Part shown: positions 8,238 through 33,487 of the stretch, piece by piece
Layout of the letters: each line of letters starts with the position of its first letter
How positions within the stretch are numbered: position 1 is the stretch's first letter
Virus record (IMG/VR): IMGVR_UViG_3300021963_000036
DNA length: 64,000 nt
Direction: 5' to 3' (one strand)
Origin: a virus
Taxonomy: Duplodnaviria; Heunggongvirae; Uroviricota; Caudoviricetes
Notes under the pieces: generated by a model
The model's input: the letters and a program-made list of their open reading frames with translations, nothing else
Told to the model about the DNA's origin: nothing
The model's database searches: none
Program-made: the position numbers and the translations under genes

Positions 8238-8266
8238 TTGACATTTGTGGTTGGATTGCTTATATT
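8238..8266 (+). promoter_or_regulatory. sigma70-type early promoter (TTGACA-17-TATATT) followed by AATAGTAAACA
   Basis: ttgaca at 8238-8243, tatatt at 8261-8266. Confidence 0.5.
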
Positions 8267-8293
8267 CGAATAGTAAACAAAAGGAATCCAACC

Positions 8294-8458
8294 ATGAACC
8301 TCGCTACTCGTAAAATTGCTGAAATGTTGAACATCGACTTGAAAATTGCTCTTGAAGTTCAACACGTTCTCGAGTGCGAATGGTTCGACTTCAGTGAGTG
8401 TTCCAACGCAAGCCTGAAGCGTAATGCAAAACGCGTCTTGAAAGAAATGACCGCGTGA
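8294..8458 (+). CDS. hypothetical small protein (first of three short translationally coupled ORFs, 8294-8736)
   Basis: 54 codons with AAGGAA RBS; next ORFs at 8482-8613 and 8610-8736 (the latter a hydrophobic peptide). Confidence 0.3.
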   Translation: MNLATRKIAEMLNIDLKIALEVQHVLECEWFDFSECSNASLKRNAKRVLKEMTA

Positions 8459-8835
8459 AGCTTTCAGAAGAAATCGCTAACATGACTGCTGTTATGGAAA
8501 CTGACAGCAGTCAACCAACACGACAAGAAGTGTACACGATCTTGCTTCGAGCATTCGTCGAACTTCGTATGTTAGAAAATCGTATCCGTTCCTTAGAAGG
8601 AAAACTCGAATGACTGAACTCATTTTGTATTATGTATTGCCGAATGTCGTGATGTTTGGTGGACTCTATCTTCTCGCAACAGGTATTGAAAACCTGACGT
8701 GGAAGTTCATTCTCTGGTATTGTGACAACTACTGAACTTTACCTGTTGACATCACTCTGCAACAATTACCGAAGTCAACAAGAATGAATTTCATGTTTCT
8801 GACTTCTCTCATCTTCGTAAAGTCTGAGGTATATC

Positions 8836-9960
8836 ATGCACTACAAGTTTCCTGAAATTCGCACGATCTATGATGTGTTGCTTGCGATCGAAGGTCGCCC
8901 AGAGTTCATCGTTGCCGAGCGCGACTTTGGCAAAGTGATCAACTACATGGTCTCGATGCCAGACACTTTCAAGATGGAAGGTCCTGACGACGTGATGGGT
9001 GCTATTCGTCGTGAGTGTCGAGGCTTGATCTTCGACGATGAAGGCAACATCATGTCTCGCCCGTATCACAAGTTCTTCAACGTGAACGAGAAAGAAGAGA
9101 CTCAGTCGCATCTTCTCGACTTGACTCGTGCTCACTCTGTGATGGATAAGTTGGATGGTTCTATGATCCGTCCGATCTGGATGCATGACACGGTTCGTCT
9201 TGCTACGAAGATGGGTGTGACTGACATTGCGATCGAAGCTGAGAAGCTGCTGGATTATGATCAGTGGACGTGGCTTGAAGATATGATGGTCGACAGTCTG
9301 ACTCCGATCTTCGAATACGTTGCTCCGACGAACAAGATCGTTGTTGAGTATGCTGAAGAAAAGCTAATCTTGACCGGTGTTCGCGAAAACGTTAGCGGTG
9401 AATATCGTAGCTTGCGCCAGTGGAATGCACCGTTTGAAATCGTTCGCACTGACTCGAATGTTCATGACTTCGATGCTTATCTTACTTTCAAGCGCGGTGA
9501 AACGAACCGTGAAGGTGACATCATCCGCTTTGCTGATGGACATATGATCAAGATCAAGAACGACTGGTACGTGCAAATCCACAAGACCAAGGACGTCGTT
9601 CGTGTTGATCGCAACATCGTTGAACTCGTACTAAACGAGACGATCGACGATACTCGCGCCGTACTTGATCCTTCGGACTTGGTTCGAGTCGATGAAGTCG
9701 AAGCTAACTTTTGGAAAGCTTTCGAGAATGTTGTTGGTCGATTGGAAGGGCTGGAACTCTTGGCTCGCACTATCTACGGTGCCGACAAGAAACGTATCGC
9801 TTTGGAAATGGCTCCGAACTTGATTAACAAACAGGATGCCGGTTTCATGTTCAAACTGATCGACGGTCATGACGTTCGTGAACTGTTGCTGACCCATTGT
9901 AAGAAGAACATCGGTTCGACTCCGAAGTATGATGAACTGATGGAATGGATGAAAGCATGA
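8836..9960 (+). CDS. rnlA: RNA ligase 1 (T4 Rnl1/gp63-like)
   Basis: HKFFNVNE (T4 Rnl1 has EKFFNLNE) and motif I MDKLDGSM; length matches T4 Rnl1. Confidence 0.8.
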   Translation: MHYKFPEIRTIYDVLLAIEGRPEFIVAERDFGKVINYMVSMPDTFKMEGPDDVMGAIRRECRGLIFDDEGNIMSRPYHKFFNVNEKEETQSHLLDLTRAHSVMDKLDGSMIRPIWMHDTVRLATKMGVTDIAIEAEKLLDYDQWTWLEDMMVDSLTPIFEYVAPTNKIVVEYAEEKLILTGVRENVSGEYRSLRQWNAPFEIVRTDSNVHDFDAYLTFKRGETNREGDIIRFADGHMIKIKNDWYVQIHKTKDVVRVDRNIVELVLNETIDDTRAVLDPSDLVRVDEVEANFWKAFENVVGRLEGLELLARTIYGADKKRIALEMAPNLINKQDAGFMFKLIDGHDVRELLLTHCKKNIGSTPKYDELMEWMKA

Positions 9961-10280
9961 CATCGGAAACTGAACTAAACTACTACGAAGAGCTTTGCAG
10001 ACTTAAGGTCCAATACAAAGCTCTTCGTGAAGAATACTTCTTGGTGTCAGCTTCTTCGCGCTTTCATGACATTGAAGAAGGAGACTTTTGTCCGGAGTGC
10101 AATGGTTCTGGCTACAAGTTGTATGGTTCTACCGCAACTTGGAGAGGTGGCATCGGCGGACAAGCTATGACTACTTCAGTATGTGATAAATGTTGGGGTT
10201 CTGGCTCTAAGTCGGCTCCTTGGCCATCATGGAGAGAATACGAAGCTCTAAAAGAAAGGTTGACAAATGACTCCGTTTAG
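9957..10280 (+). CDS. zinc-ribbon protein
   Basis: CPECNGSGYK ... CDKCWGSGSK paired CxxC motifs. Confidence 0.45.
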   Translation: MTSETELNYYEELCRLKVQYKALREEYFLVSASSRFHDIEEGDFCPECNGSGYKLYGSTATWRGGIGGQAMTTSVCDKCWGSGSKSAPWPSWREYEALKERLTNDSV

Positions 10281-10461
10281 AGTAGATTTTGATCAAGTAA
10301 ATTACATGAAATTTCGTCCAGGAACCAAACTTGTGCTTGGACCAGAAATTGCTATAGTGATGGCTTCGTGCAATAAAATTCCGCGCGTGTTCAAGCCTAT
10401 TGTTGATTTGTCAAAAATGATGCATCACCCTGAAGTCGAAGCACTTCTGTTTGGAGTATGA
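10267..10461 (+). CDS. hypothetical protein
   Basis: 64-aa ORF overlapping the upstream stop. Confidence 0.3.
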   Translation: MTPFRVDFDQVNYMKFRPGTKLVLGPEIAIVMASCNKIPRVFKPIVDLSKMMHHPEVEALLFGV

Positions 10462-10723
10462 CATGAAAGTACGTGAAGCGTTTCCCGGATTTACTACGCT
10501 GTTCAAGCACTGCCGTCCAGCCGCTGGTGATGCGGTTGTATATGAAGTCGATGCTGGAGCACCAGCCGATCCAAACCTTGTTATGAAAGCATCTTGCTTT
10601 GATGATGAGAAACCCGTTGGTGAAACGTTCGAGTTCATTATCTCTAAGGAATGGGTTCTTGAAAACATTGTAAGTATCCTAGCTGCGTACGAACCAGTTG
10701 ACAATGTAGCAAGTTCGGTATAA
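10451..10723 (+). CDS. hypothetical protein
   Basis: 90-aa ORF. Confidence 0.35.
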   Translation: MEYDMKVREAFPGFTTLFKHCRPAAGDAVVYEVDAGAPADPNLVMKASCFDDEKPVGETFEFIISKEWVLENIVSILAAYEPVDNVASSV

Positions 10724-10748
10724 TATCCGATTGAAATAGGAGATAAGA

Positions 10749-11870
10749 ATGTTCGAACGTAAACTAGCGTCTATTCGGCGCATCGCTGACATCCAACCGA
10801 TCGAAGGCGCTGATCAAATTGTAGTCGCCACCATCGATGGCTGGAAAGTTGTTGTTAAAAAAGATGAGTTTCGAGTTGGTGATCTTGCAGCATATCTTGA
10901 GATCGACTCGTGGGTTCCTCATGAACTCGCCCCATTCCTCTCGAAAGGTCAAGATCCTCGCGAATACAACGGTGTGAAAGGTGAACGCCTGCGCACTATC
11001 AAACTTCGCGGACAGGTTAGTCAAGGGCTGCTGCTTCCACTTCGGCCAGTGTTTGCAGAGTGGACTGATGAGAATTTTCAAAAGAATATTCTTGAAGATG
11101 AGGAACGTGTCGGCGACGATCTTACTGAAGCACTTGGCATCCAGAAATGGGAAGCTGTGCTGCCTGCACAACTTCAAGGTCAGGCCAAAGGCACGTTCCC
11201 AACGTCACTGATTCCAAAGACTGATCAAGAGCGTATTCAAAACTGCTTTGGTGAAATCCAAAAGCGGGCAAAGCGGTTCGCTACTGAGAAGGTCTGGAAT
11301 GCTGAGACTCAGACTCTGGAAGAGCATCCAGTTGTTGTTCCTACTGACTTCAAAGAACAGACCTACGAAGTCACCATGAAACTGGATGGTTCGAGTTGTA
11401 CTATCTTCCGCTGGGAAGACGAACTTCGTGTTTGCAGTCGGAACCTTGAGCTCAAGATCAACGATGAAAACAAAGACAACACCTTCGTTGCCATGGCTCT
11501 CAAGATCGGCGACCGTGTTCCTAATGGGTTTGCTTTTCAAGGTGAAGTGATGGGACCTGGCATTCAGGCCAACCGTGAAGGATTTATTGAACATAAGTTC
11601 TTCGTGTTTGATGTGTTCCTCATTAAAGAACATAAGTATGCCGGTCCAGCCTACCGGCGAGCGTTTTGCCAAGAATACGGATTCGAACACGTTCCAGTTC
11701 TTGAGCATAATCTCAAGGCACCCGTGAGCGTCGCAGAAGGTCTTGCTATGGCAGAAGGTCCGAGCATCAACCACAAGATCCGTGAAGGTCTTGTTTGGAA
11801 GTGCAACGAAGACCCGAGCTTCAGCTTCAAGACGATCAGCAATCAGTTCCTGCTGAAAGGTGGGGACTGA
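10749..11870 (+). CDS. second ATP-dependent RNA ligase, Rnl5/DraRnl-like, with an N-terminal OB/tRNA-binding-like domain
   Basis: Motif I MKLDGSSCTIF at residue ~211; the N-terminal 100 aa (IRRIADIQPIEGADQIVVATIDGWKVVVKKDEFRVGDLAAY) follows the Trbp111/CsaA OB-fold pattern. Confidence 0.55.
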   Translation: MFERKLASIRRIADIQPIEGADQIVVATIDGWKVVVKKDEFRVGDLAAYLEIDSWVPHELAPFLSKGQDPREYNGVKGERLRTIKLRGQVSQGLLLPLRPVFAEWTDENFQKNILEDEERVGDDLTEALGIQKWEAVLPAQLQGQAKGTFPTSLIPKTDQERIQNCFGEIQKRAKRFATEKVWNAETQTLEEHPVVVPTDFKEQTYEVTMKLDGSSCTIFRWEDELRVCSRNLELKINDENKDNTFVAMALKIGDRVPNGFAFQGEVMGPGIQANREGFIEHKFFVFDVFLIKEHKYAGPAYRRAFCQEYGFEHVPVLEHNLKAPVSVAEGLAMAEGPSINHKIREGLVWKCNEDPSFSFKTISNQFLLKGGD

Positions 11871-12175
11871 TGTGTAACTGCAAAGGATGGGACGTTGCGT
11901 TCTTCCAAGATGATGAGATCACGGTAGTACAGCACTTTTGTCGAGTGTATGGAGACTGTGGTCACGTCGATAACACCCTTGAAGAGGCTGCAGATCAAGT
12001 CGCCTCTGAATACGACAAGAACTATGATTGGTACTGTGATGCGAGAAATCGTGACATAGTAGAAGTCACAGACGAGAAACTCGATTGGTTGCTTGCTCAA
12101 GCGAAGTCTTGGAAAGATCGTACACATACGAGCTATTTGTACTACGCAATTGGCGAAAATATTGGCCTTTTGTGA
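11870..12175 (+). CDS. hypothetical Cys-rich protein
   Basis: ATG overlaps the upstream stop (TGATG); MCNCKGWD... frame. Confidence 0.35.
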   Translation: MCNCKGWDVAFFQDDEITVVQHFCRVYGDCGHVDNTLEEAADQVASEYDKNYDWYCDARNRDIVEVTDEKLDWLLAQAKSWKDRTHTSYLYYAIGENIGLL

Positions 12176-12237
12176 AAAAGGCTATTTACATCCTTTGTGA
12201 ATAGGGTTATACTATATTCATAGCCAAGGAGATAAAC

Positions 12238-12771
12238 ATGACTGTCAATGCTTCCGATCGTAACGGCCTCGAGCTTACCCCCGCTGCAGACACCTTGAAC
12301 GCCTACCGCTTGACTGCGGTAAACACCAAGACCAAGAAGTTCACAGCTTACGCAGCCGGTACTCGTAAATCGAACCAAGAGTTCAATATGTTCACGATCG
12401 GCTTATATGACGATCCTCGCGACGCTGCTTATGTTGCTCAAGAGTTCGAAAAGAAAGTCAGCAAATCTCAAGTTCGTGAGATGGTTACCGACAGTACTTT
12501 CGCTGAGTTTGCTAAAGACTTCCGGTCGAACATCGAAATCCCTGAGTGGGTCTACCCTGCTGAAGGTATGACGATCGACGAGATGCTGAACACCACCTAC
12601 AAACGCAACTATGTTCTCGATGCCCGTGAAGCTCTGGTTGAAGCGATCAACGTCTTCAAAAAGCCGGTTCCTTCTCTGAAAGATGCTGCAGCGATGATCA
12701 AGAAAGTTGAAGCTGCGGTGAAAGAAGGTATGACCCTCCGTGCAGCTGCGGCGAAAGTGATCGGCGCCTAA
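12238..12771 (+). CDS. hypothetical protein
   Basis: 177-aa ORF with AAGGAG RBS after a TTTACA-17-TATACT promoter (12185-12213). Confidence 0.45.
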   Translation: MTVNASDRNGLELTPAADTLNAYRLTAVNTKTKKFTAYAAGTRKSNQEFNMFTIGLYDDPRDAAYVAQEFEKKVSKSQVREMVTDSTFAEFAKDFRSNIEIPEWVYPAEGMTIDEMLNTTYKRNYVLDAREALVEAINVFKKPVPSLKDAAAMIKKVEAAVKEGMTLRAAAAKVIGA

Positions 12772-12808
12772 GCAAAACATAAATAGTAAGCAATATCATG
12801 GAGGAACC

Positions 12809-13567
12809 ATGCGCTTACTATTCATTCTTGCCCTCATCCCAACGTTTGCTTATGCAAATCCAATAGACGACAAATGCCCAGAGCACACCGCTCTGGGTGC
12901 TCCTATATCTAAGCTAGTTGAAGATACACAGTATGTATGTCATACCAACTATGCAATTCACTATCGCTTTGATACTAAGACTGCTGAATACGTAGTCGAG
13001 CATCTAGACGATGCTGACATCAATGGTCCAGCAAAGCGAAAAGACGACTTCAGACCAGACGATCAAATTCCAGCTGAGCATTCAGCAACGCTTGAAGATT
13101 ACTCTGGCGAACCATACGATCGTGGGCATCTAGTCCCAGGCGCAGACAATAAAGCAGATCAAGAGATCATGAGTGAAAGCTTCTTTCTTTCAAACATGGT
13201 TCCTCAAGTGCCAAACAACAACCGCGGTATCTGGAGAATGCTTGAGCTCAAAGTACGTAACTGGGCTCTTGAAAAGAGAGACCTCTATGTGGTCTCTGGT
13301 ACGATCTATGAAGAAGGATACAAGACCATCGGTGATGGTAAAGTTGGTGTCCCTACGTACCTCTGGAAGGTTGTGTATGATAAGACTACCAACACAACCG
13401 TGGCATACCTCATGCCGAACGCTGAGCTTCCAGTGAATGATCTACCAAAGTACGTAACCACAGTAGACCAAGTTGAAGAACTTACTGGTCTGAATATCTT
13501 CCCACAGCTTGAAGAATCTGCAGAAGGCGTTGCAAATCCTGAAGTATGGACCAACATTTCTGATTGA
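12809..13567 (+). CDS. secreted DNA/RNA non-specific endonuclease (Serratia NucA family)
   Basis: N-terminal signal peptide MRLLFILALIPTFAYA; active-site DRGHLVP and Mg-site FFLSNMVPQ motifs. Confidence 0.8.
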   Translation: MRLLFILALIPTFAYANPIDDKCPEHTALGAPISKLVEDTQYVCHTNYAIHYRFDTKTAEYVVEHLDDADINGPAKRKDDFRPDDQIPAEHSATLEDYSGEPYDRGHLVPGADNKADQEIMSESFFLSNMVPQVPNNNRGIWRMLELKVRNWALEKRDLYVVSGTIYEEGYKTIGDGKVGVPTYLWKVVYDKTTNTTVAYLMPNAELPVNDLPKYVTTVDQVEELTGLNIFPQLEESAEGVANPEVWTNISD

Positions 13568-13616
13568 CATTTTTCCTTCTGTGGTGTAGAGTTGAACCAT
13601 AGAAGGAGATTACACA

Positions 13617-14072
13617 ATGAAAAAAGGCGAACTCCTGAGCAAGATGCTCCATATCGCTACTAATGCCCACCACGGCCAGTTTGATCGTGGTGGCAATCCC
13701 TACATCCTGCATCCGATCAAAGTGATGCACTACATCAAATCCGAAGACGAAGAGCTGCAGTGTATCGCACTTGGCCATGACGTAATCGAAGATACAGATG
13801 TGACCTTCCTCGATCTTGTCGATGCTGGAATGACCACTCGAGTTATTGAGGGTATCCGAGCTCTGACAAAGATGCCGGGGCAAACCTACGATGAATACAA
13901 AGAAGGCGTCTTCAAGAATGTTGATGCCATGAAAGTCAAGTTGGCGGATCTTCGCCATAATACAGACGTGCGCCGGCTGAAAGGTGTCTCTGAAAAAGAC
14001 ATCGCCCGCATGGAAAAGTACCATCGTTTCTACCTTGAAATCAACTTCCGCTTGAAGGAACTCGAAAAATGA
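13617..14072 (+). CDS. HD-domain (p)ppGpp hydrolase (small alarmone hydrolase, Mesh1/SpoT-like)
   Basis: HGQFDRGGNPYILHP ... LGHDVIEDT motifs; 151 aa. Confidence 0.75.
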   Translation: MKKGELLSKMLHIATNAHHGQFDRGGNPYILHPIKVMHYIKSEDEELQCIALGHDVIEDTDVTFLDLVDAGMTTRVIEGIRALTKMPGQTYDEYKEGVFKNVDAMKVKLADLRHNTDVRRLKGVSEKDIARMEKYHRFYLEINFRLKELEK

Positions 14073-14485
14073 AACCGTTTAAGATCAACCGTAGCTCTTG
14101 GCACTACAAACTGAACCAGCACTTCTTTAACATGGAAGGAAGTAGCGAATATTGGATGCAACGGGACTGGGAACCGAAGCACAACACCTTCTGTTCATAT
14201 TGGCGCGCAACGATGTTTCGCTTCATTTTTGCGTCTGCACTCATGGCCTTTTTTGGTACGCTTTTCACTGCTCTTGGAGTAGCAACTTATCAAGACCCGT
14301 TTGCGGCACTCATCACGTTCCTTTCGATCGCCACTGTTTTTGGTTCGGTTATCGGTTCTTTCGCGATCTTTCAATACTTCAAAAATCGTAGCGAAAAGAA
14401 CAGCAATGAACCTAAGTCGCTGTTCGTTCAGAAATACCGTGCATACAAATCGAAAGTATGCCCAATGGTGGAATTCGAAAAATGA
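14069..14485 (+). CDS. membrane protein
   Basis: two or three predicted TM helices (FIFASALMAFFGTLFTALGV..., ALITFLSIATVFGSVIGSFAIF). Confidence 0.45.
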   Translation: MKPFKINRSSWHYKLNQHFFNMEGSSEYWMQRDWEPKHNTFCSYWRATMFRFIFASALMAFFGTLFTALGVATYQDPFAALITFLSIATVFGSVIGSFAIFQYFKNRSEKNSNEPKSLFVQKYRAYKSKVCPMVEFEK

Positions 14486-15126
14486 AAACTCGTCTGATCG
14501 GAGACATTCACGGTGAATGGGAACTCTATCATCAAACCGCAACTGATGCGATCAATTCCGGATGCGAACGCACGATCCAAGTTGGTGACTTCGGTGTTGG
14601 ATTCTCTGGTCCATATTGGCACGACCGCGCTGACGAATTTCACTGGGACCGAACGCATCGCTTCATCCGTGGCAATCATGATGATCCATCACGTTGCAAG
14701 AAAATGTCTGGCTGGATTCAAGATGGCCTTATCGAAAATGACGTGATGTTCATCGGTGGTGCATGGTCAATCGACCATATGCTACGCACTGAAGGAACTT
14801 CTTGGTGGGCTGATGAAGAACTATCGATGGAAGAACTCTATCGCATGATCGAGATCTATGAGCAGGTCAAGCCTCGAGTTATGATCACTCATGACTGTCC
14901 GCAAGAAGTAAGCACAGCGATGTTCATTCAAACCGGTCTTGCTTTGTTCAAAGGGAATGCTAAGACTATTCCTACTCGAACTGCAATGGCATTCAGCACG
15001 ATGCTTGATATTCACCAGCCCGATGAGTGGTATTTCGGACATTGGCATAACACAATGCAATACAAACATGGGCGTACGATGTTCCAGTGTCTTGGTATTC
15101 ATGATTATGTGGACGTAGAACTATGA
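14482..15126 (+). CDS. Ser/Thr-phosphatase-like metallophosphoesterase (lambda-PPase fold)
   Basis: GDIHGEW, VGDFG and RGNHDD motifs; start taken at MKTRLIGDIHG. Confidence 0.7.
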   Translation: MKTRLIGDIHGEWELYHQTATDAINSGCERTIQVGDFGVGFSGPYWHDRADEFHWDRTHRFIRGNHDDPSRCKKMSGWIQDGLIENDVMFIGGAWSIDHMLRTEGTSWWADEELSMEELYRMIEIYEQVKPRVMITHDCPQEVSTAMFIQTGLALFKGNAKTIPTRTAMAFSTMLDIHQPDEWYFGHWHNTMQYKHGRTMFQCLGIHDYVDVEL

Positions 15127-15332
15127 CCGAATATAATCCATTCACTGAGTGTGAAGCAATGAGTTCTGAACATGGTACCGGATGGTCGGTTGTTTCAAAA
15201 TATTGGAGCATCCCATGCGCAAATGAAGGTACAGCCAAACGTATTGCCGAGATTATTAAATTTGCTTATCACCGCGGTGTATCTGATAATCAAAACATGA
15301 TAAAAAAGGTAATGGGAATTCCGTATGAATGA
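15123..15332 (+). CDS. hypothetical protein
   Basis: 69-aa ORF coupled to its neighbours. Confidence 0.35.
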   Translation: MTEYNPFTECEAMSSEHGTGWSVVSKYWSIPCANEGTAKRIAEIIKFAYHRGVSDNQNMIKKVMGIPYE

Positions 15333-17672: not shown

Positions 17673-17701
17673 TTGACACTTAGAAAGAATGATGATATTC
17701 T
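17673..17701 (+). promoter_or_regulatory. sigma70-type promoter (TTGACA-17-TATTCT)
   Basis: ttgaca at 17673-17678. Confidence 0.4.
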
Positions 17702-17725
17702 ATTCATGTAAGCAAGGAGCTACTC

Positions 17726-17926
17726 ATGAAAAAGATCGTCATTCTCTCTGTTCTTCTTCTTTCTGCTTGTGCTAGTGCTGGCATTCCGATCGAACAAGAT
17801 CGTGAAATGCAGTTGCAGTACATGCAAGATGTTTCTGAGCGTAAAGTGTTTCGACCTGAAGTGTATGCTGAACCAGAGTTCGAAGCAGACTGTGAAGAAT
17901 ATCAAATGGAAGAATGCTTCAATTAA
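17726..17926 (+). CDS. small lipoprotein
   Basis: MKKIVILSVLLLSAC lipobox-type signal peptide. Confidence 0.45.
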   Translation: MKKIVILSVLLLSACASAGIPIEQDREMQLQYMQDVSERKVFRPEVYAEPEFEADCEEYQMEECFN

Positions 17927-25614: not shown

Positions 25615-26367
25615 ATGCCTCTGCAACAACAAGCAAGAATAACTAAGCGGCAGAAACGAATTAGTAAGCAACAAGGGATGCACGACGAGACTAGAGAACC
25701 AAAAGCGTTCTTAATGAAAGATGATATTAGTCCCATGACAGACAACCAGCGTGTTGCATTTGACCAGTGGGATGATGGATATAACCTAATGCTGCATGGC
25801 ATCGCGGGAACAGGTAAAACTTTCATCGGTATGTATTTAGCACTCAGCGAAGTACTCAAAACAAGTTCACCATATAGAAAAGTCTATATTGTTCGTTCTA
25901 CAGTGTCGACTCGCGATCAAGGGTTTCTTCCAGGATCGCTTAAAGATAAAGCCAAAGTCTTTGAAGCTCCATATGTTCCAATTGCAACCAAACTATTTGG
26001 TCGCGGTGATGCGTATGAAGTCTTGAAAGGAAAGGGCATAATCGAGTTCATCACTACGTCTTATCTTCGTGGCGAAACATTTGATAACTGCATTTTGCTT
26101 GTTGACGAAGTTCAAAATATGGGTGACGGAGAACTTCACACGGTTATGACTCGCGTTGGAGAAAATTGCCGGATCTTGTTCTGTGGAGACGTTAAGCAGG
26201 ATGATCTTACATCTGAACGTAAGAAAGAATTGTCTGGTCTACGAGACTTCATGAGAATCATCCAGCATATGCGTGAATTTGAGTTTGTTAATTTTGAGAT
26301 TGAAGATATTGTTCGTTCGAAGCTCGTTAAGTCCTACATCATAGAAAGAGATAGACTAGGACTATGA
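25615..26367 (+). CDS. phoH: PhoH-family ATPase
   Basis: Walker A GIAGTGKT, Walker B ILLVDEVQN, and PhoH-like C-terminal region. Confidence 0.85.
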   Translation: MPLQQQARITKRQKRISKQQGMHDETREPKAFLMKDDISPMTDNQRVAFDQWDDGYNLMLHGIAGTGKTFIGMYLALSEVLKTSSPYRKVYIVRSTVSTRDQGFLPGSLKDKAKVFEAPYVPIATKLFGRGDAYEVLKGKGIIEFITTSYLRGETFDNCILLVDEVQNMGDGELHTVMTRVGENCRILFCGDVKQDDLTSERKKELSGLRDFMRIIQHMREFEFVNFEIEDIVRSKLVKSYIIERDRLGL

Positions 26368-26552
26368 GCGCAAAAATTACAGGTATATCACGAGTAAAAA
26401 CCGATGTTGACGGTGAACCATATATAGAATTCAATCCTCGTCTCCTAGCCCAAGTGGGCTGGGATGACAGGACTCTTCTCGAATGGGAAGTGATGGGCAA
26501 CATGGCTGTCATAAGGAAGAAAGAAGATGGCGGGAATAGCACGACAAGGTGA
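26364..26552 (+). CDS. small protein with AbrB/MazE-like swapped-hairpin pattern
   Basis: KITGISRVKTDVDGEPYIEFNPRLLAQVGW resembles SpoVT/AbrB/MazE N-terminus; weak. Confidence 0.3.
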   Translation: MSAKITGISRVKTDVDGEPYIEFNPRLLAQVGWDDRTLLEWEVMGNMAVIRKKEDGGNSTTR

Positions 26553-26826
26553 TTCAGTAGCAACTGGACATTTATGTGATACTACAACTACTTTAGACAC
26601 ACCTGGACAGTCGACTGTTTTTGTCGACGGTATCCTTGTTGCATGTCAAGGTGATTTAACAGTAACTCACGACTATAAGGTCGGTGATGCATGTGTACCC
26701 CATGTTGCATCAATTTCTGGTGCGACTTCAACTGTAAAGATCGGTGGTATATCCATCGCAAAATTAGGCGATGCTTGTGATGCAGGATCTATCACTAGTG
26801 CGTCATCAACTGTATTCATAGGATAA
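26527..26826 (+). CDS. PAAR-repeat spike-tip protein (T4 gp5.4-like)
   Basis: Three PAAR-like repeats: ARQGDSVATGHLC, VFVDGILVACQGD, VKIGGISIAKLGDAC; 99 aa. Confidence 0.6.
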   Translation: MAGIARQGDSVATGHLCDTTTTLDTPGQSTVFVDGILVACQGDLTVTHDYKVGDACVPHVASISGATSTVKIGGISIAKLGDACDAGSITSASSTVFIG

Positions 26827-26828
26827 TC

Positions 26829-27323
26829 ATGATAGGATTCAGGCAGTTTATGGAAAGAGCACCAACAAAGAAGTACGTAGCCGTACAGTATGATGCCGCC
26901 ACTCAGAAGAAGCTTCGTAAATGGGCTGAAGACAATGGTTTTGACTTGTCAACAAAGTACGACGGAACCAAACAGGATCCAGAAGACTTCGACTTTCATA
27001 CGACGATCTTCTTCACGTCTTCAGAGCACGATATTCCAAACTATATCAAGACAATTGCCCCGTCTGGAAGCGCAAAAGTAGTTGACATTATGATGCTTGG
27101 GGTTAATAATGACATACCTGTTCTGAAGATAGAATCACCTATGGTGTTACGTCTGCGTAAGCACTATGAGGATGCTTTCGATATGAAAGACGAGTGGCCT
27201 GAGTACAAGCCACATGTTTCCATATCGTACTCGAAAGATCTGCCTGACATGAACAAAGTGAAACTACCAACGTTTGAACTAACGTTTAACCAAGTGAAAG
27301 TTGATGATGGAGCAAGTTCGTAA
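26829..27323 (+). CDS. 2H phosphoesterase (LigT / 2',3'-cyclic phosphodiesterase-like)
   Basis: Two H-x-T/S-x motifs: FHTTIFF and PHVSISY, ~90 aa apart. Confidence 0.5.
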   Translation: MIGFRQFMERAPTKKYVAVQYDAATQKKLRKWAEDNGFDLSTKYDGTKQDPEDFDFHTTIFFTSSEHDIPNYIKTIAPSGSAKVVDIMMLGVNNDIPVLKIESPMVLRLRKHYEDAFDMKDEWPEYKPHVSISYSKDLPDMNKVKLPTFELTFNQVKVDDGASS

Positions 27324-28002
27324 GTATGAAATGATACGCGATGCTGATGTGCGCGTAGGAGAAAAGACAGTTTGTTTTATTCGTGCACTAGTCGACTTTG
27401 GTGACGTGAAAGCTGGCGATATCGGTGGGGCTATCGAGAGAGAAGATAATCTATCTCATGATGGTGATTGTTGGGTCTATCACTCAGCAAAAGTATATGG
27501 CTTCGGCAAAGTTATGGGAAATGCAAAGATCAAAGATAACGCCGAAATATTTGACTTTGCCACAGTCGCGGATGATGCGATAGTGGCTGGTAATTCTAAA
27601 GTATTCCAACAAGCAACCGTGTATGGAAAAGCTGTAATCGATGGACATGCTTCAGTATACGGTGCAGCGCAGGTTTTTGGTAATTCTCGAGTGATTGGAT
27701 TCTCAAGAGTACATGACGATGCATGGATCTATGGTGATCTGCTTGTAGATGGATACTCAAATATCACGCGCAAAACAACTATGCAACCTATTACGCTGTT
27801 AGGTCTAGAATACAATGTAACCATCATGGACGATGATATAAGTATTGATTGTCAGACCAAGTCGTTCGATGAATGGCGAAAGGTTACTCGAGAAGAAGCG
27901 TTTGCATTGAATGGCAAAGCAAGTCTGAAGTTCTTCAACGAGTCTTATGACACCTTCGAGTTCCTTGTACAAAAATATAGAAAGAAGAAGTCAAATGTTT
28001 AA
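27301..28002 (+). CDS. beta-helix repeat protein
   Basis: Tandem pseudo-repeats AxVxGxxKV (NAKIKDNAEIFDFATVADDAIVAGNSKVFQQATVYGKAVIDGHASVYGAAQVFGNSRVIG). Confidence 0.4.
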   Translation: MMMEQVRKYEMIRDADVRVGEKTVCFIRALVDFGDVKAGDIGGAIEREDNLSHDGDCWVYHSAKVYGFGKVMGNAKIKDNAEIFDFATVADDAIVAGNSKVFQQATVYGKAVIDGHASVYGAAQVFGNSRVIGFSRVHDDAWIYGDLLVDGYSNITRKTTMQPITLLGLEYNVTIMDDDISIDCQTKSFDEWRKVTREEAFALNGKASLKFFNESYDTFEFLVQKYRKKKSNV

Positions 28003-28663
28003 CCATGTACAGCATGGAATAGAACTAGAGCAGCTCGGTTGTGATACTACTCCAACCGGGCGTTTCTATTTTCCACCATCGGGTGAAAAGTATCCTTCAG
28101 TCACAACAGTATTGAGTGTTCAAGATAAGTCTGGTCTCGACGCGTGGAAAGCTCGAGTTGGTGAAGAAGAAGCAAAACGAATCAGTATCCAAGCAGCGAA
28201 TCGTGGATCAGACGTTCACCTGATCGCTGAGAACTATTTGAACAATCTTCCAGACTACAAGAAAAAGTGTATGCCGATCAATCTCATGACGTTCAACACA
28301 TTGAAGCCAGTCATTGATGAGAGAGTGAACAATATCTATTTCCAGGAAGCACCACTATACAGCCACAGAATTAAGACTGCTGGACGAGTCGACTTGATCG
28401 CAGAGTTTGATGGTCAGTTATCAATCATCGACTTCAAGACATCACGTAAGCCAAAGAAGGCAGAGTGGATTGAAGGATACTTTATGCAGGAATCATTCTA
28501 TGCTGCAGCGTTCTATGAACGTACAGGTCTGGCTATCAAGCAGCTTGTGACTCTTGTTATGGTAGATGATGATAAGCCTCAAGTGTTCATTGAACAACCT
28601 ATGAAATGGCTACCGAAGTTCCTTGAACTAAGGAATAAGTATAAATCCGTTCATGGTATCTAA
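27995..28663 (+). CDS. PD-(D/E)XK nuclease (Cas4/RecB-like exonuclease fold)
   Basis: GRVDLIAEFDG ... SIIDFKTSRK matches the D-x(n)-(D/E)xK core. Confidence 0.5.
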   Translation: MFNHVQHGIELEQLGCDTTPTGRFYFPPSGEKYPSVTTVLSVQDKSGLDAWKARVGEEEAKRISIQAANRGSDVHLIAENYLNNLPDYKKKCMPINLMTFNTLKPVIDERVNNIYFQEAPLYSHRIKTAGRVDLIAEFDGQLSIIDFKTSRKPKKAEWIEGYFMQESFYAAAFYERTGLAIKQLVTLVMVDDDKPQVFIEQPMKWLPKFLELRNKYKSVHGI

Positions 28664-28804
28664 CAGAATTATTTGAAGACCATAAGGTATTATACACATA
28701 GTACGAAAGTTGTCAACCAAAAAATAAATCAAAAAGGTTGAAATAGCCTATGTACATTCCCGTTGAGAAGTACTATATCTGAATAGTAAGCAACGGAGAA
28801 GAAA

Positions 28805-28960
28805 ATGTCTGACATCGTAACGATCTTGACCGACCTTCTGATCAAAGCTCAAGAAGAGCTTGCCTCGGCTGTAACTGTGACTTCCATCGACGTCGCAAAG
28901 ACGAAAGTCAAACAGCTCGAGATGAAACTCGATCGTATCATGACTCTTGCAGATCTCTGA
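28805..28960 (+). CDS. hypothetical small protein
   Basis: 51 codons with GGAGAAG RBS. Confidence 0.3.
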   Translation: MSDIVTILTDLLIKAQEELASAVTVTSIDVAKTKVKQLEMKLDRIMTLADL

Positions 28961-28970
28961 GGTATTCAAT

Positions 28971-29378
28971 ATGACCTACACCTACGACTCCAAACTCGTT
29001 TCCGATCTTCATAAAGACACTTACGGGTTTCGCCCGTCGGTTCACTACATGGTCGAGTGGGACAAAGCAAGTCCTTCCGGCAAACAGGCAATCTGGGATG
29101 GATTGCTGGTCGACCTCGATCGTGAGATTGATCGTGAAAAGCAGGAGACTGCTCGTAGTGTAGAAATCTTCGAGTCGATGATCACCAACTCGATCAAGCT
29201 CGGAGCTGCAGATCGTGATACTGCTATCCGGTGGCTGACTCAAGCTGAAGAGTTCGAACATTCTCAGGATGTTGAGCAGTTCGTTTGGAGTCACGGTATC
29301 CTCTTCACTGACCTTGGCCGCGAGATCGTAAAGAAAGTTTGCGACGAACGTGGCATCTATTTGTTTCAACCAGAATGA
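28971..29378 (+). CDS. hypothetical protein
   Basis: ORF starting MTYTYDSKLV with GAGG RBS. Confidence 0.4.
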   Translation: MTYTYDSKLVSDLHKDTYGFRPSVHYMVEWDKASPSGKQAIWDGLLVDLDREIDREKQETARSVEIFESMITNSIKLGAADRDTAIRWLTQAEEFEHSQDVEQFVWSHGILFTDLGREIVKKVCDERGIYLFQPE

Positions 29379-29387
29379 AAGCACAAA

Positions 29388-29588
29388 ATGAAATTCGCTA
29401 ATCAAGTTGCAGCTCTGTCTCACGGATTGTCAGAGATGGCTAAGACCCATCCAAACGACATGATCTCGAATGCTATGGCTGCACTCGCAGATAAGCTCAA
29501 CACAAAAGGTGATACTCTCACCACAAAGATGTTGACAAGGTCTGAGAAGATGCTTATTGCTTACTATCATGCAAACAAGGTGAAATGA
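29388..29588 (+). CDS. hypothetical protein
   Basis: 66-aa ORF. Confidence 0.3.
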   Translation: MKFANQVAALSHGLSEMAKTHPNDMISNAMAALADKLNTKGDTLTTKMLTRSEKMLIAYYHANKVK

Positions 29589-29750
29589 AATGATCGGTCT
29601 TTCTATTCTAATCGGCGCGTACTGGATTGCTGACGCAATCATGTTCGTGCATGGTTACAAAAGTTTCTGGTTCTGTGCTAAAACAGATCAAGAAAAAGCT
29701 GTACGCAAAGCGTTCTTCGAAACCAAAAGCATTGAGTGGGACGGTAAGCA

Positions 29751-30305
29751 ATGAACCTCTTCATCCTCGATAAAGACCCCGTAAAAGCAGCTCAACTGCA
29801 GTGCGACAAGCACGTCGTCAAGATGATCGTCGAGTCTGCTCAAATGCTCTCAACGGCTCATCGTATGCTTGACGGTGTCTTGAAGCGTGCGCCTTCGAAG
29901 TCTGGCAAGACGATGTCGAAGCACTGGACTTTGCCTGACGATCGTGAAAGTGTTTTGTACAAAGCAGTTCATATGGCACATCCCTGCACTGTCTGGACTA
30001 CACTGTCAAACAACAACTACACGTGGCACTGGGTTCACTTCGCTGCTCTCTGCGACGAGTACAAGCATCGCTACGGCAAAACTCATGCGACTGATACGCT
30101 ACTTCGTGAAAAGCTGAAAGCCCTTCCTCGTAACATTCCAGTTGCACCTCTCACTCAACAGCCTCTTGCAATGAAAGCAAATCCTGAGTGTATACATCCC
30201 AATGATCCGGTTCGTTCGTACCGTGAATTCTACCAGACGAAGCAAGGCAGGTTCAAGATGGTCTGGACAAATCGTGAGGTGCCGGAATGGTTTACAGTGA
30301 AGTGA
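29751..30305 (+). CDS. hypothetical protein
   Basis: 184-aa ORF, His/Trp/Cys-rich. Confidence 0.45.
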   Translation: MNLFILDKDPVKAAQLQCDKHVVKMIVESAQMLSTAHRMLDGVLKRAPSKSGKTMSKHWTLPDDRESVLYKAVHMAHPCTVWTTLSNNNYTWHWVHFAALCDEYKHRYGKTHATDTLLREKLKALPRNIPVAPLTQQPLAMKANPECIHPNDPVRSYREFYQTKQGRFKMVWTNREVPEWFTVK

Positions 30306-30499
30306 AGAATGAGTATGGCTTCAGCGCTGAAGATGTTCGCACTTATCGCGAGTTGACTGGCACTGGCATGATGGAAGCGAAGAAGCACTTCATAGACATC
30401 TACCATCAAAAGCAGAAAGCCGAGATGGTGAAGCTTATAGAGTCTGGCACACTCGAAGATATTCAAAAAATTGTGAAAATTTTGATCGAGAGGTATTGA
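30287..30499 (+). CDS. hypothetical protein
   Basis: 70-aa ORF overlapping the upstream stop. Confidence 0.3.
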   Translation: MVYSEVKNEYGFSAEDVRTYRELTGTGMMEAKKHFIDIYHQKQKAEMVKLIESGTLEDIQKIVKILIERY

Positions 30500-30524
30500 C
30501 ACTTCTGCACCAATTGCTTATATT
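30496..30524 (+). promoter_or_regulatory. sigma70-type promoter (TTGACA-17-TATATT) followed by AATAGTAAGCA
   Basis: ttgaca at 30496-30501, tatatt at 30519-30524. Confidence 0.5.
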
Positions 30525-30554
30525 CTAATAGTAAGCAGCGGCTAGGAGGCCACT

Positions 30555-30872
30555 ATGATCACCATCTATCAAATCCCTCTCAACGGCGCCTTTTCTGATC
30601 CCAAACTTCTTTCTGCAAAGTCTGACTTGATGCTCGGCTTCAATCGTTGGAAAGACGATTATTCGAAGATGTACGTTCGCACTTACGAAGTCGACACTGA
30701 CGATCTTGAACAAGCTTTCGAGTCGACCAACCTCTGGGAGGACAACAAAGTTGTTCGTCACCGTAACGGTTCTTCTACCTCTGTCGGTGATATCGCGGTG
30801 AAAGACGGTAATTGCTACTTCTGCGACAACTACGGTTGGGTTGCACTCGGCAAATATGAAGGGATGAACTAA
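30555..30872 (+). CDS. hypothetical protein
   Basis: 105-aa ORF with AGGAGG RBS. Confidence 0.4.
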   Translation: MITIYQIPLNGAFSDPKLLSAKSDLMLGFNRWKDDYSKMYVRTYEVDTDDLEQAFESTNLWEDNKVVRHRNGSSTSVGDIAVKDGNCYFCDNYGWVALGKYEGMN

Positions 30873-30873
30873 C

Positions 30874-31227
30874 ATGGCTTACATCAGTGTTGAAGAAGTC
30901 AAGAATGTCCGTGAGAAACTCAAAGCAGAGTTTCCGAAGTTCAAGTTCTCTGTAAGCGGAGGTAGTAGCCTCGAACTGAAAGTCTCGATCATGAAAGGTC
31001 CTGAAGACTTCAGCGAACTGACGAAAGACTGGTCGAACCCGTCGATCAACGAGTTTCACTTGTATCAGTACGGTAAGTTCGAAAAGCTCTTCGAAAAGAT
31101 CCTGAGCGTCATGAAGAGCCAAGACTGGTTCGATCATTCAGACTCTTCAGTTGATTACTTCCACATCGCTTACTACGTCAACCTCTCGATCGGTAAGTGG
31201 AACAAAAAGTACGAACAAGTAAAATAG
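30874..31227 (+). CDS. hypothetical protein
   Basis: 117-aa ORF. Confidence 0.4.
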   Translation: MAYISVEEVKNVREKLKAEFPKFKFSVSGGSSLELKVSIMKGPEDFSELTKDWSNPSINEFHLYQYGKFEKLFEKILSVMKSQDWFDHSDSSVDYFHIAYYVNLSIGKWNKKYEQVK

Positions 31228-31280
31228 CTGTGTACATCATGTGTTGGATGGTATAGTCTGGTATCAGAAAGGAACTCATC

Positions 31281-33407
31281 ATGTCTCTTCTCACTAAAAA
31301 GTCTATCCTCGCCCGTCTGCTCGCGAATGAAAATGTCGCTGTTGAGCAGACGAACCATCACACAGCTTTCTTCGATGTCACCAACCGCGTGCTCGGTCTT
31401 CCGTTCTGGAAGGACATCGACAAAGATCTATACGATCTTCTAGTCGGCCACGAAATCGGCCACGCTCTCTTCACTCCGGCTGACGGCTGGCATTCCTGCA
31501 CTACCGATATTCCCGGTTGCCCTCGTGACTACGTGAACGTCGTTGAAGACATCCGCATCGAAAAGAAAGTCCTGAGCAAGTATCCAGGGCTGCTCGCTTC
31601 GTTCATGCGCGGCTACCAAGATCTTCTCAATCGCGACTTCTTCGGTCTTTCCAAGAAAGAGATCAACAAACGTTCCTTCATGGATCGCTTGAACGTCTTC
31701 TCTAAGTCTCGCGGCTTGGTGAAAGTCCACTTCAATGAAAAAGAACAACCCTACGTTGATATGGCCATGGCCGTAGAAACTTGGGAAGATGTTATCGAAG
31801 CTTGCCGCAAAATCTACGAATTCGTCAAGGGCGAAATTCAAAACGAACAAAATGCTGATCCTGACGAACAAGCATCTGGTATGCCTTCGAAGGTGATCAT
31901 CAAAGCCGGTAAGCCAAATGAAAAAGGTGAAGAGCTTTCGAAAGAAGAGATGGAAGCCATCGTGAATGGCGACATCGAAGTTGAGATCGACACCGAGTCC
32001 TTCGAGGCAGCAGCTGGTGAAGAAGGTGAAGATGGCGACGAAGGTCAAGACGGTCAAGGTTCTTCTTCGAATGAAGAAGGTGATGAGGAAGCTGAAGCTG
32101 CTCCTAGTGTTTCCACTGGTGCTGGTTCGGCTGCTGATCAAGTCGACACTGACAAAGAGTTCCGGAACAACTTCATGAAGAAGCTGGTCGACTCAGTCAA
32201 TACCGGCGGAAAGACTCTCTATGCAAAAGGTCCTACCGTTCAACAAGCAATGGCGACCATCAGCAGCTACGAAGATGTGCACGACTCTCGCTTCAGCAAA
32301 CTTCGTGCTGAAGACGAAAAGTACAAGAAAGCTCTTGCTGAAACGAAGCAGACCGTGATGCTTATGGTCAAAGAATTCGAAATGCGTAAAGCAGCTTATC
32401 GCTCTGCTCGAGCTCGAGTGTCGACCAAAGGTAGCCTCGACGTTAATCAACTCCACAAGTACAAGTACGACGACCAGCTCTTCAAGCAAGTCACCTACTT
32501 GGCAGACTCTCAATCTCACGGCATGATGATGCTGGTGGATTACTCCGGATCGATGTCGAATACCATCAAAAGTGTTCTCAAGCAGATCGTAGTGATGGTT
32601 GCCTTCTGCAAGCGAGTGAACATTCCCTTCGAAGTTTACGGCTTCACATCTATGGTAGCCGGTCCAAGGTTCGAAGCGAAACGCTTGATGGTTGAACGTA
32701 CCGCTTCGAAGTTGACGAGCGTCAGCATGGTGGGTTCTCATATTTTCAAGTTGATCGCCTCTGATATGTCGAAGCCAGTCTACGAAGAAGCATATCGTTC
32801 ACTGTGGGCTCAAAGCTACTATGGCGCAAGCTACCGTGGCAACCTCGAGCAAATGAATGGTACTCCACTCAACACTTGCCTGTTGACTATGATGCAAGTA
32901 ATCCAAACTTTCAAAGCTAAGCACAAAGTCCAGAAGATGAACTTCATCACTCTGACTGACGGTGAAAGCGAAAACATGGGTGTTCAGTACGGTATCGACA
33001 CTCAGAACCGCGGGCAGAAGTGTATCGTTAACCACATGGGCTTCAACATCGAGCAAATGTTTGGTTATGGACATGCAGCTCTGAACACGAAGAACATCTT
33101 GGAATGCTTCACCAAGATGGGTGTTCGCACTATGAACTACTACGTCAACCCTGATCGCTACCAGCTCAGCCAAAAAGCTGTAAAAGAGTTGAGCAAAGAA
33201 GGTCTGTCAGTGGTCGACAATGATGGTGGCTATGATCGCCGGTTCTACCTCCGCAATAACTCTGAGCAACTGACTGGTGTTGTGGCTGACATGGACTTTG
33301 ATGATACGGCCACTTCGTCGAAGATCGCTCGCGAATTCTCCAAGCATGCCACTTCCAAGCAAAACGCTCGGACCTTGGCTTCGAAATTCGCCGAAGTTAT
33401 TTCGTAA
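31281..33407 (+). CDS. cobT: CobT-like protein with C-terminal von Willebrand A domain (partner of the MoxR ATPase)
   Basis: 708 aa; central acidic low-complexity linker; C-terminal MIDAS-type LVDYSGSMSN; N-terminal HEIGH motif. Confidence 0.6.
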   Translation: MSLLTKKSILARLLANENVAVEQTNHHTAFFDVTNRVLGLPFWKDIDKDLYDLLVGHEIGHALFTPADGWHSCTTDIPGCPRDYVNVVEDIRIEKKVLSKYPGLLASFMRGYQDLLNRDFFGLSKKEINKRSFMDRLNVFSKSRGLVKVHFNEKEQPYVDMAMAVETWEDVIEACRKIYEFVKGEIQNEQNADPDEQASGMPSKVIIKAGKPNEKGEELSKEEMEAIVNGDIEVEIDTESFEAAAGEEGEDGDEGQDGQGSSSNEEGDEEAEAAPSVSTGAGSAADQVDTDKEFRNNFMKKLVDSVNTGGKTLYAKGPTVQQAMATISSYEDVHDSRFSKLRAEDEKYKKALAETKQTVMLMVKEFEMRKAAYRSARARVSTKGSLDVNQLHKYKYDDQLFKQVTYLADSQSHGMMMLVDYSGSMSNTIKSVLKQIVVMVAFCKRVNIPFEVYGFTSMVAGPRFEAKRLMVERTASKLTSVSMVGSHIFKLIASDMSKPVYEEAYRSLWAQSYYGASYRGNLEQMNGTPLNTCLLTMMQVIQTFKAKHKVQKMNFITLTDGESENMGVQYGIDTQNRGQKCIVNHMGFNIEQMFGYGHAALNTKNILECFTKMGVRTMNYYVNPDRYQLSQKAVKELSKEGLSVVDNDGGYDRRFYLRNNSEQLTGVVADMDFDDTATSSKIAREFSKHATSKQNARTLASKFAEVIS

Positions 33408-33423
33408 AGCTACACTTAGGGGG

Positions 33424-33452
33424 TTGACACTTCTCCCTAAGTGACTTATATA
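33424..33452 (+). promoter_or_regulatory. sigma70-type promoter (TTGACA-17-TATATA) whose -35 lies in the loop of a 7-bp hairpin
   Basis: ttgaca at 33424-33429; CTTAGGG (33415-21) pairs with CCCTAAG (33435-41). Confidence 0.5.
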
Positions 33453-33487
33453 GAATAAGTAAGCTAATCAAAACTCAGGAGACTTAA

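Follow-up and report, generated by a model that had tools for sequence, protein, structure and literature searches.

A conserved start-site block in a family of putative early-promoter cassettes of an uncultivated T4-like phage

We analyzed a 64-kb stretch of DNA (the window, W) from the uncultivated tailed phage IMGVR_UViG_3300021963_000036, which represents about one third of a genome of roughly 195 kb and in which the 11-mer AATAGTAAGCA recurs behind -10 promoter hexamers. According to our analysis, this motif most probably belongs to strong early-promoter cassettes that form a paralogous family, and comprises their discriminator, start site, and initially transcribed segment, a reading to which we assign a probability of roughly 0.6. 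The cassettes have a common architecture, their start block lies in a fixed register and is linked to one type of -10 hexamer, it is conserved although the spacers drift, and the whole arrangement is restricted to one clade of phages. The element is real and under selection; it extends the early-promoter cassettes known from phages and is no new regulatory system.

The first-pass annotation of the window had listed five sites of the motif, and both positions and sequences were confirmed: 8269-8279 (AATAGTAAACA), 12782-12792, 28782-28792, and 30527-30537 (each AATAGTAAGCA), and 33454-33464 (AATAAGTAAGC). Allowing up to one mismatch, AATAGTAAGCA has 8 matches in the window compared to a mean of 1.17 in dinucleotide-preserving shuffles, none of which (0/100) reached 8. 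Together with the register counts in the clade and the hexamer linkage described below, this rules out a chance origin. An inverted copy at 12812-12822 on the minus strand and a further promoter bearing the core at 17673 had been missed before. The match at 25660 was dismissed as a candidate for a second leader without promoter, being located within the conserved PhoH reading frame and not kept in relatives. Like this match, the near-matches at 29558 and 39266, both on the minus strand, are not conserved, and all three were attributed to chance. No Rfam family was found at the motif sites.

The annotation had further placed all five sites directly after a -10-like element. This held for 8269, 28782, 30527, and 33454, whereas 12782 (site F, discussed below) has no sigma-70-type promoter. 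All four promoter-linked sites have a single register: GTAAGC or GTAAAC begins exactly 6 nt past the hexamer, and no insertion is needed at 33454. These four sites have a 17-bp spacer, and the ATG of a plus-strand open reading frame (ORF) follows 18-29 nt past the G of the block. The geometry supports the earlier proposal that the motif covers the expected transcription start and about the first 10 nt of the transcript, for a subset of promoters. The cassettes of the window, including their Shine-Dalgarno (SD) sequences, are as follows:

Cassette E, 8238..8296, plus strand: -35 TTGACA (8238-8243), -10 TATATT (8261-8266), discriminator CGAATA (8267-8272), start block GTAAACA (8273-8279; motif 8269-8279), SD AAGGA, ATG 8294.
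Cassette A, 28751..28807, plus strand: -35 TGTACA (28751-28756), -10 TATATC (28774-28779), discriminator TGAATA, start block GTAAGCA (28786-28792; motif 28782-28792), SD GGAG, ATG 28805.
Cassette B, 30496..30557, plus strand: -35 TTGACA (30496-30501), -10 TATATT (30519-30524), discriminator CTAATA, start block GTAAGCA (30531-30537; motif 30527-30537), SD AGGAGG, ATG 30555.
Cassette D, before the gene of a CobS-like ATPase, 33413..33490, plus strand: -35 TTGACA (33424-33429), -10 TATATA (33447-33452), discriminator GAATAA, start block GTAAGCT (33459-33465; motif 33454-33464), SD GGAG, ATG 33488.
Further promoter with the core, 17673..17728, plus strand: -35 TTGACA (17673), -10 TATTCT (17696-17701), discriminator ATTCAT, start block GTAAGCA (17708-17714), SD AGGAG, ATG 17726.

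The promoter at 17673 (TATTCT-attcat-GTAAGCAaggag) keeps the same register, and its orthologue in contig L121 reads TAGTCT-gatcat-GTAAGCAaggag.

Relatives of the phage were environmental contigs recovered from a viral contig collection. L015 has about 80% DNA identity to window 23.7-34.8 kb and L010 72-75% over the same region, while L094-L097, one of which is from a 195-kb contig, are 71-87% identical across window 1.9-23.9 kb. Alignment of the promoters of the window and these relatives defines a subclass TTGACA-N17-TATAT(C/T/A)-N6-GTAA(G/A/C). For an unbiased count we used only loci that had not been retrieved via the motif (W, L015, and L094-L096) and only promoters with an SD sequence and an ATG. 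GT(A/G)A was present at the fixed offset in 12/12 promoters with a TATAT-type hexamer compared to 2/26 others (Fisher p = 3e-8, a generous value, as orthologous sites are not independent and inflate the statistics). The G of the block is the seventh nucleotide past the hexamer at each of the four window sites, at the promoter at 17673, and in about 25 cases in relatives. Conversely, GTAAGCA occurs as 76 distinct words in the approximately 629 kb of clade sequence, and in 26 of them a TATAT-type hexamer and a -35 box precede the word, the hexamer at a distance of 6 nt.

A scan of the viral collection with TTGACA-N17-TATATCT-N5-GTAA yielded about 75 matches at 51 loci, all of them in this clade and many per contig, which collapsed to 42 non-redundant cassettes after removal of near-duplicates. 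Copies thus number 4-5 in the window and at least 10 in the 195-kb contig, with 42 in the non-redundant clade set. Several positions that were not fixed by the search are conserved among the 42 cassettes: TT at -29/-28 and GATTGCT at -19 to -13 (0.5-1.2 bits) upstream, and AACTA at -5 to -1 (0.7-1.2 bits) and GCAA at +5 to +8 (0.6-1.3 bits) in the start region; the G of the SD sequence is found at +11 in 34/42. The sequence of the -35/-10 spacer is unconstrained, with about 0 bits at -26 to -20. The resulting clade consensus is TTGACATT-N9-GATTGCT-TATATC-TAACTA-GTAAGCAAC-GGAG-N6-8-ATG. The window's AATAGTAAGCA is a lineage flavor of the clade's AACTAGTAAGCA: the discriminator is TAACTA in the clade and xGAATA or xTAATA in W, and the "AATA-G" flavor is particular to the W lineage.

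The 20-mer core has no match in 596 Gb of bacterial genomes, and the loose architecture gives only 10 scattered single matches there, which is about the chance level, compared to the approximately 75 clustered in viral contigs. The element therefore belongs to the phage clade and is no copy of a host promoter, which excludes mimicry of host promoters and bears out the suggestion that the motif is phage-specific. More distant relatives use TATAAT hexamers with flavors of their own, for example TATAAT-TAATCA-TA in four copies in L098, and have GTAA at the same offset in 4/25 promoters. Within the close group, promoters with other hexamers (TAGAAC, TAGACT, and TAAGCT) share a post-hexamer block of their own, ATATCTAT(A/G)A..GCAAC, which we observed at window 4128, 13564, and 16118, in L094 at 1054, in L095 at 3604, 14154, and 14410, and in L096 at 4166 and 14342. 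With a shift of about 6 nt, this block looks like the sequence of the TATATC class, suggesting a relationship between the promoter classes.

At orthologous positions, the block is kept while the spacers differ freely, as seen at sites A and B (W, L015, and L010) and at site E (W and L094-L096). The orthologues of site A (L015 at 5108, L010 at 4787) retain TATATC-N6-GTAA(A/G)CAA, those of site B are located at 6852 in L015 and at 6965 in L010, and those of site E in L094, L095, and L096 retain TTGCTTATATC-N6-GTAAG. A complete cassette, site C, is present in L015 (7231-7290) and L010 between the homologues of ORFs 30555-30872 and 30874-31227, which abut in W (window 30872-30874), where site C is absent; from these junctions, we take site C to be a case of cassette gain or loss, i.e. 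turnover. Concerted evolution found no global support as the cause of the identical 11-mers, with no overall homogenization seen within genomes (p = 0.52). Isolated instances that look like homogenization are "AATA-G" at all four W sites and "tatcga" at two L095 sites.

Two observations concern the surroundings of cassettes E and A. Between the DNA ligase gene and cassette E lies a hydrophobic mini-ORF of 22 codons (MDGFTLFLIILTFGIIYVGLKG; window 8173-8241, plus strand), whose TGA stop falls within the -35 TTGACA of the cassette and whose protein sequence is conserved in L094-L096. The minus strand carries, back to back with cassette A, a perfect consensus promoter TTGACA-N16-TATAAT (28716-28689) that is directed antisense into the 3' end of an exonuclease gene (27947-28663), with no obvious minus-strand gene downstream; it may drive an antisense RNA.

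Bacterial RNA polymerases prefer to start with a pyrimidine at -1, a purine at +1, and a G at +2, and the core recognition element of the polymerase favors a non-template G at +2. We propose that the primary-sigma RNA polymerase of the host would read the cassettes. Their upstream half is composed of TTGACAtt, a 17-bp spacer ending in gaTTGCT or gAAGTAC, and TATAT(C/T/A), and their downstream half of 6 nt (TAACTA; xGAATA or xTAATA in W), GTAAGCAA, 1-2 nt, GGAG, 6-8 nt, and the ATG. If the hexamer occupies -12 to -7, the invariant G would fall on the usual sigma-70 start position, the preceding A being the alternative; transcription would start at the A or the G of the conserved T-A-G. With a start at A, T-A-G reads as pyrimidine (-1), purine (+1), and G (+2), which fits the known polymerase preference. 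Transcripts would begin with (A)GUAAGCAAC, with about 10 nt up to the SD sequence and about 20 up to the AUG, resulting in a uniform leader 5'-(A)GUAAGCAAC-GGAG-N6-8-AUG. The predicted folding of promoter-initiated leaders is negligible (mean -1.0 kcal/mol). The block would then be kept by selection on the choice of the start point, on open-complex stability or promoter escape, and on a short, unstructured, and well-translated leader; it would be part of the core promoter and leader and no separate regulatory site. The hexamer linkage, the strict orientation, and the fixed register fit such a role, and the recurrence of the exact 11-mer in the window would be explained by paralogous copies that share one constraint.

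Several points weigh against this interpretation, in addition to the non-independence of the orthologous sites. The +1 position is assigned by distance rules only, and an alphaproteobacterial host is only suggested, by an alpha-type transfer-messenger RNA (tmRNA; see below) and the TATATC hexamer. Conservation at +3 to +9 reaches beyond the known start-site and core-recognition contacts, which makes a further constraint at the level of RNA or protein binding likely. In five genomes, site F has the 11-mer but no sigma-70 promoter; selection can thus act on the sequence for a purpose unrelated to initiation, there probably a hairpin. Moreover, the orthologues of site D in L010 (9973) and L015 (9936) keep GTGA only; the block decays there while the promoter survives, and it is thus not indispensable.

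Such a further constraint could come from a factor acting in trans, for which the block would be a cis signal, either as part of the dyad TTGCTTA-N11-TAAGCAA or as a 5'-AGUAAGCAAC messenger RNA (mRNA) leader; we regard this as possible, if clearly the less probable option. For the RNA variant, which we judge to be unlikely, the 5'-terminal (A)GUAAGCAAC would be recognized post-transcriptionally by a RegA-like repressor, an endoribonuclease, or the ribosome, for which it would act as an enhancer, giving one class of early messages a common fate. It would account for the strict orientation, the fixed SD distance (G at +11 in 34/42), the excess conservation at +3 to +9, and the persistence of the block in the 5' untranslated region at site F in the absence of a sigma-70 promoter, and in T4, RegA and RegB are known examples of a control exerted on early mRNAs as a class (PMC3014915). 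However, sequence alone cannot tell an RNA leader from an effect at the promoter, no promoter-less intergenic copies recur besides site F, where the hairpin explains the block, and the window, which is part of the genome, revealed no homologue of RegA or RegB. A DNA operator strikes us as rather doubtful. A dimeric regulator of phage or host origin would bind the dyad TTGCTTA (-17 to -11)-N11-TAAGCAA (+2 to +8) around the melted region and switch a subset of promoters off (or on) as a regulon. The clade consensus indeed holds a perfect 7-bp inverted repeat whose arms resemble each other in their conservation profiles, weakest at -14 and +5, the position over -10 and +1 is typical of repressors, the dyad is confined to one promoter class, and a protein site requires no covariation of its arms, whose absence is therefore no counterargument. 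Against an operator, only four of the seven positions per arm are informative, as T-12 and A-11 (of TATATC) and T+2, A+3, and A+4 (of GTAA) were fixed by the search. Further, the gAAGTAC-TATATC flavor (sites A and C) lacks the left arm and still keeps GTAAGCAA, the half-site centers are about 18 bp apart, which is no whole number of helical turns, and the two copies at site F point away from each other, 20 bp apart. Among the window proteins, none suggested itself as the regulator: the only Pfam hint for the "DNA binding protein" at 29751 (phrog_624) is a sub-threshold match to pyrimidine-dimer glycosylase, and it looks DenV-type. A separate "middle" class, an RNase site, and a transcription factor site, all of which the first-pass annotation had put forward, found nothing in their support, the operator and the RNA leader persisting as rivals.

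The same inverted repeat might instead act in RNA. The motif could pair with the -10 flank (TTGCTTAUAU / AUAGUAAGCAA) in read-through RNA and form a processing site or an occluding structure, which would be missing from promoter-initiated RNAs. Some cassettes are long perfect hairpins (for example CUCCGUUGCUUAU/AGUAAGCAACGGAG, -23.5 kcal/mol, z -6.2), hairpins from the spacer to the SD sequence and AUG show compensatory changes at site E (W compared to L095) and site A, and cognate pairing between pre-start sequence and leader is slightly above non-cognate pairing (p = 0.013, with a median rank near random). The TTGCTTA and TAAGCAA arms do not covary, though (126 paired cells compared to 123.5 +/- 3.5 in shuffles, p = 0.28), which makes a hairpin unlikely. 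In a register-free comparison, the -10 flank of a cassette did not prefer its own motif to those of others (p = 0.14, median rank near random); the median fold z is -0.4, with z < -2 in 7/41 cassettes, and at window sites B and D, folding is not stronger than in shuffles. With neither covariation nor a significant cognate preference and with mostly unremarkable z-scores, the TGCTTA...TAAGCA hairpin was rejected as a general explanation, and we consider it very improbable that the motif is primarily a hairpin arm. Least credible, to the point of being negligible, is a MotA-type middle element marking promoters of sigma appropriation, a likeness raised by the first-pass annotation. TTGCTTA and TAAGCA do agree with the core sequence of T4's MotA box, (a/t)(a/t)TGCTT(t/c)A, but that box lies 12 +/- 1 bp upstream of the -10 element, with its center at -30, and takes the place of the -35 element (PMC2988021). 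Here, TTGCTTA abuts the hexamer at -17 to -11, TAAGCA is found at +2 to +7 in the opposite orientation, and the -35 TTGACA (once TGTACA) with its 17-bp spacer is present at every site and not replaced. There is also no usable TAnnnT 11-13 bp downstream of TTGCTTA, and no MotA or AsiA homologue was found among the approximately 60 proteins scanned in the window, i.e. in about one third of the genome. As its defining geometry is not found, the MotA box was dismissed.

Three narrower possibilities were discarded as well. A sigma-70-dependent, promoter-proximal pause element of the lambda PR' type requires that the initially transcribed region contain a -10-like hexamer with A at position 2 and T at position 6. 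AATAGT of the window would qualify, but A at position 2 is mostly missing from the clade versions ACTAGT, TCGAGT, and TATAGT; no such hexamer is kept across the clade, and the element straddles the start and does not follow it. A T4-type late promoter at the four promoter-linked sites is contradicted by variable positions in the alignment to TATAAATA (TCTGAATA, TTCTAATA, and TCTAACTA), and the other TATAAATA boxes of the window are not followed by GTAAG. Finally, the tandem stops TAG-TAA were dismissed as a translational stop signal, as they close only 2/3 frames and the upstream ORFs end at or before the -35 box.

Some local pairings were observed in individual cassettes. The spacer of cassette E (8249-8257) is complementary to its SD-ATG stretch (8285-8293; GGTTGGATT/AATCCAACC, -19.4 kcal/mol, z -4.75), and L095 (6963-7020) has a compensatory version of this pairing (GCCGGATT/AATCCGGC, -24.4 kcal/mol). 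The fold is possible only in read-through RNA, and translation of ORF 8294 may thus depend on its own promoter. A similar pair, CCGTTG/CAACGG (28760/28791), is present in cassette A, and the non-GTAA promoter at 13564 has, by eye, the pair UCCUUCUGUGGU/ACCAUAGAAGGA.

Site F, counted by the first-pass annotation as a fifth promoter site, turned out to be a hairpin arm in front of a nuclease gene:

Site F, 12778..12822, plus strand: T4-late-like box CATAAATA (12778-12785), 5' arm identical to AATAGTAAGCA (12782-12792), SD GGAGG and ATG 12809 inside the hairpin, 3' arm GCTTACTATT (12813-12822) in codons 2-5.

The product of the gene (12809-13567) is a non-specific endonuclease for DNA and RNA (Pfam Endonuclease_NS, 3e-50) that has a signal-like segment at its N terminus; such a secreted nuclease is potentially harmful if made early. 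The predicted hairpin (-15.1 kcal/mol, z -4.1) recurs in L094 (-18.6 kcal/mol), L095 (-12.9 kcal/mol), and L096 (-14.1 kcal/mol). The box CATAAATA matches the late consensus at 7/8 positions, is replaced by AATAAATA or GATAAATA in close relatives, and is a perfect TATAAATA in L098 and L103; in L098, the late box itself is the 5' arm of the equivalent hairpin. The cassette leader sequence would thus be reused here as a hairpin arm that hides the nuclease gene's ribosome-binding site in read-through RNA, and the late-like box overlapping the arm would start an RNA beyond it and free the ribosome-binding site. An RNA starting at 12792, just past the arm, is predicted to keep only -4.5 kcal/mol. 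The arm shares 12 identical nucleotides with cassette A (AATAGTAAGCAA), which suggests that it derives from a cassette leader that lost its early promoter. Of the late transcription proteins, gp55 was not seen among the window proteins scanned, and a gp33 homologue is present. A comparable arrangement is known from the T4 genes e, soc, 49, and I-TevI, whose read-through RNA is translationally silent while RNA from an internal late promoter is active (PMC3014915). As in gene e, the SD sequence and AUG of site F are buried in a stable predicted hairpin of the read-through RNA, and the late-like box (CATAAATA; TATAAATA in L098 and L103) overlaps the 5' arm; unlike in gene e, the 5' arm repeats the start-block sequence of the early cassettes.

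The cassettes have the features of sigma-70-type early promoters, namely a TTGACA-like -35 box, a spacer of 16-18 bp, a TAnnnT-like -10 hexamer, and a co-directional gene with SD sequence and ATG. T4 early promoters carry extra consensus regions beyond the sigma-70 elements, and like the "uber" UP/-35/TGn/-10 early promoters of T4, which are transcribed by host sigma-70 polymerase (PMC2988021), those described here combine a near-consensus -35, a 17-bp spacer, and an A-rich upstream region. They also share with them additional conserved positions, the presence of many copies on one strand before small early genes, and a genome of the T4 superfamily. They differ in having TATATC or TATATT instead of TATAAT and in the extra conservation at -6 to +9 (TAACTA-GTAAGCAA), which is tied to the hexamer; this hexamer-tied block is not described for T4 in the literature cited. 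T4-like phages additionally carry repeated, lineage-specific early-promoter cassettes termed PeSLs (PMC2839356, PMC4122927). Both PeSLs and the present cassettes are repeated modules of a well-conserved sigma-70 promoter, an SD sequence, and an ATG between small genes, with lineage-specific consensus flavors and with presence or absence at orthologous junctions (here site C). PeSLs have a stem-loop or terminator just upstream of the promoter, whereas a strong stem was found in only 7/42 cassettes and at site D, where it surrounds the -35 box; sites E, A, and B lack an upstream stem-loop (-0.6, -0.9, and -4.8 kcal/mol). A conserved start-site and leader block is not part of the PeSL descriptions (PMC2839356, PMC4122927). 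PeSLs are further linked to indels or exchange between related genomes; in this respect, the present cassettes show the presence or absence of site C and no overall homogenization within a genome. The stem enclosing the -35 box in the 7/42 clade cassettes is favored in cognate over non-cognate pairing (p = 0.0006). In cassette D (window 33413-33444), it consists of CACTTAGGGGG/TCCCTAAGTGA around TTGACA (-17.4 kcal/mol), and the relatives show compensatory changes, TTAAGGGG/CCCCTTAA and ATTTAGGGG/CCCCTAAAT (L010, about 9960-9995; L015, about 9925-9960).

For an uncultivated T4-like branch, the results provide a compact description of one class of promoters, TTGACA-N17-TATATC-N6-GTAAGCAA-N1-2-GGAG, that helps in the annotation of metagenomic phage contigs with respect to transcription units and gene starts. 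They also supply more than 40 natural variants of a primary-sigma promoter in which the first nine transcribed bases, the start site, and the discriminator are under strong selection. As it stands, the known theme of extended early-promoter cassettes is widened and none is newly opened. In our reading, the finding amounts to an extended core-promoter and leader block in a repeated cassette, together with a single reuse of the block as a hairpin arm. If a trans factor did read the block, a separately timed regulon of at least 10 promoters per genome would result in a T4-like clade that lacks MotA-type middle promoters, and with it a different solution to the early-to-middle switch; were this a phage factor, it would illustrate how T4-like phages without MotA and AsiA sort their pre-replicative genes.

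Megablast revealed no match of the window among cultured phages. The window proteins place the virus in the T4 superfamily as an uncultivated myovirus, and its gp32-type single-stranded DNA-binding protein has about 50% identity to that of the nearest isolates. The T4 gene order 33-59-32, encoding the late-transcription co-activator gp33, gp59, and gp32, is kept at window 40003-41810. Other T4-type proteins include a gp5-like baseplate hub, the tail tube, and RnlA- and RnlB-type RNA ligases; in addition, a DNA ligase, nicotinamide adenine dinucleotide (NAD) salvage enzymes, PhoH, CobS/CobT-like proteins, and a CCA-adding enzyme are encoded. The plus strand of the window carries about 20 GGTTGACA-N17 promoters. 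Boxes with the T4 late-promoter consensus TATAAATA are located at plausible positions, including a divergent pair at 46668/46697, which marks the junction of the opposed tail and baseplate gene blocks. The gp33-gp59-gp32 order and the divergent pair are consistent with T4-type late transcription. The alpha-type tmRNA, which hints at an alphaproteobacterial host, is a two-piece (permuted) RNA encoded at window 36108-36479 on the plus strand, with matches to Rfam RF01849 (102.7 bits) and RF04321 (94 bits) and an ARAGORN tag peptide ANENSAPVAYALAA. A promoter, TTGACA-N17-TATAAATA (36112-36142), directly precedes it, and both this promoter and the RNA start are kept in L010 (12528).

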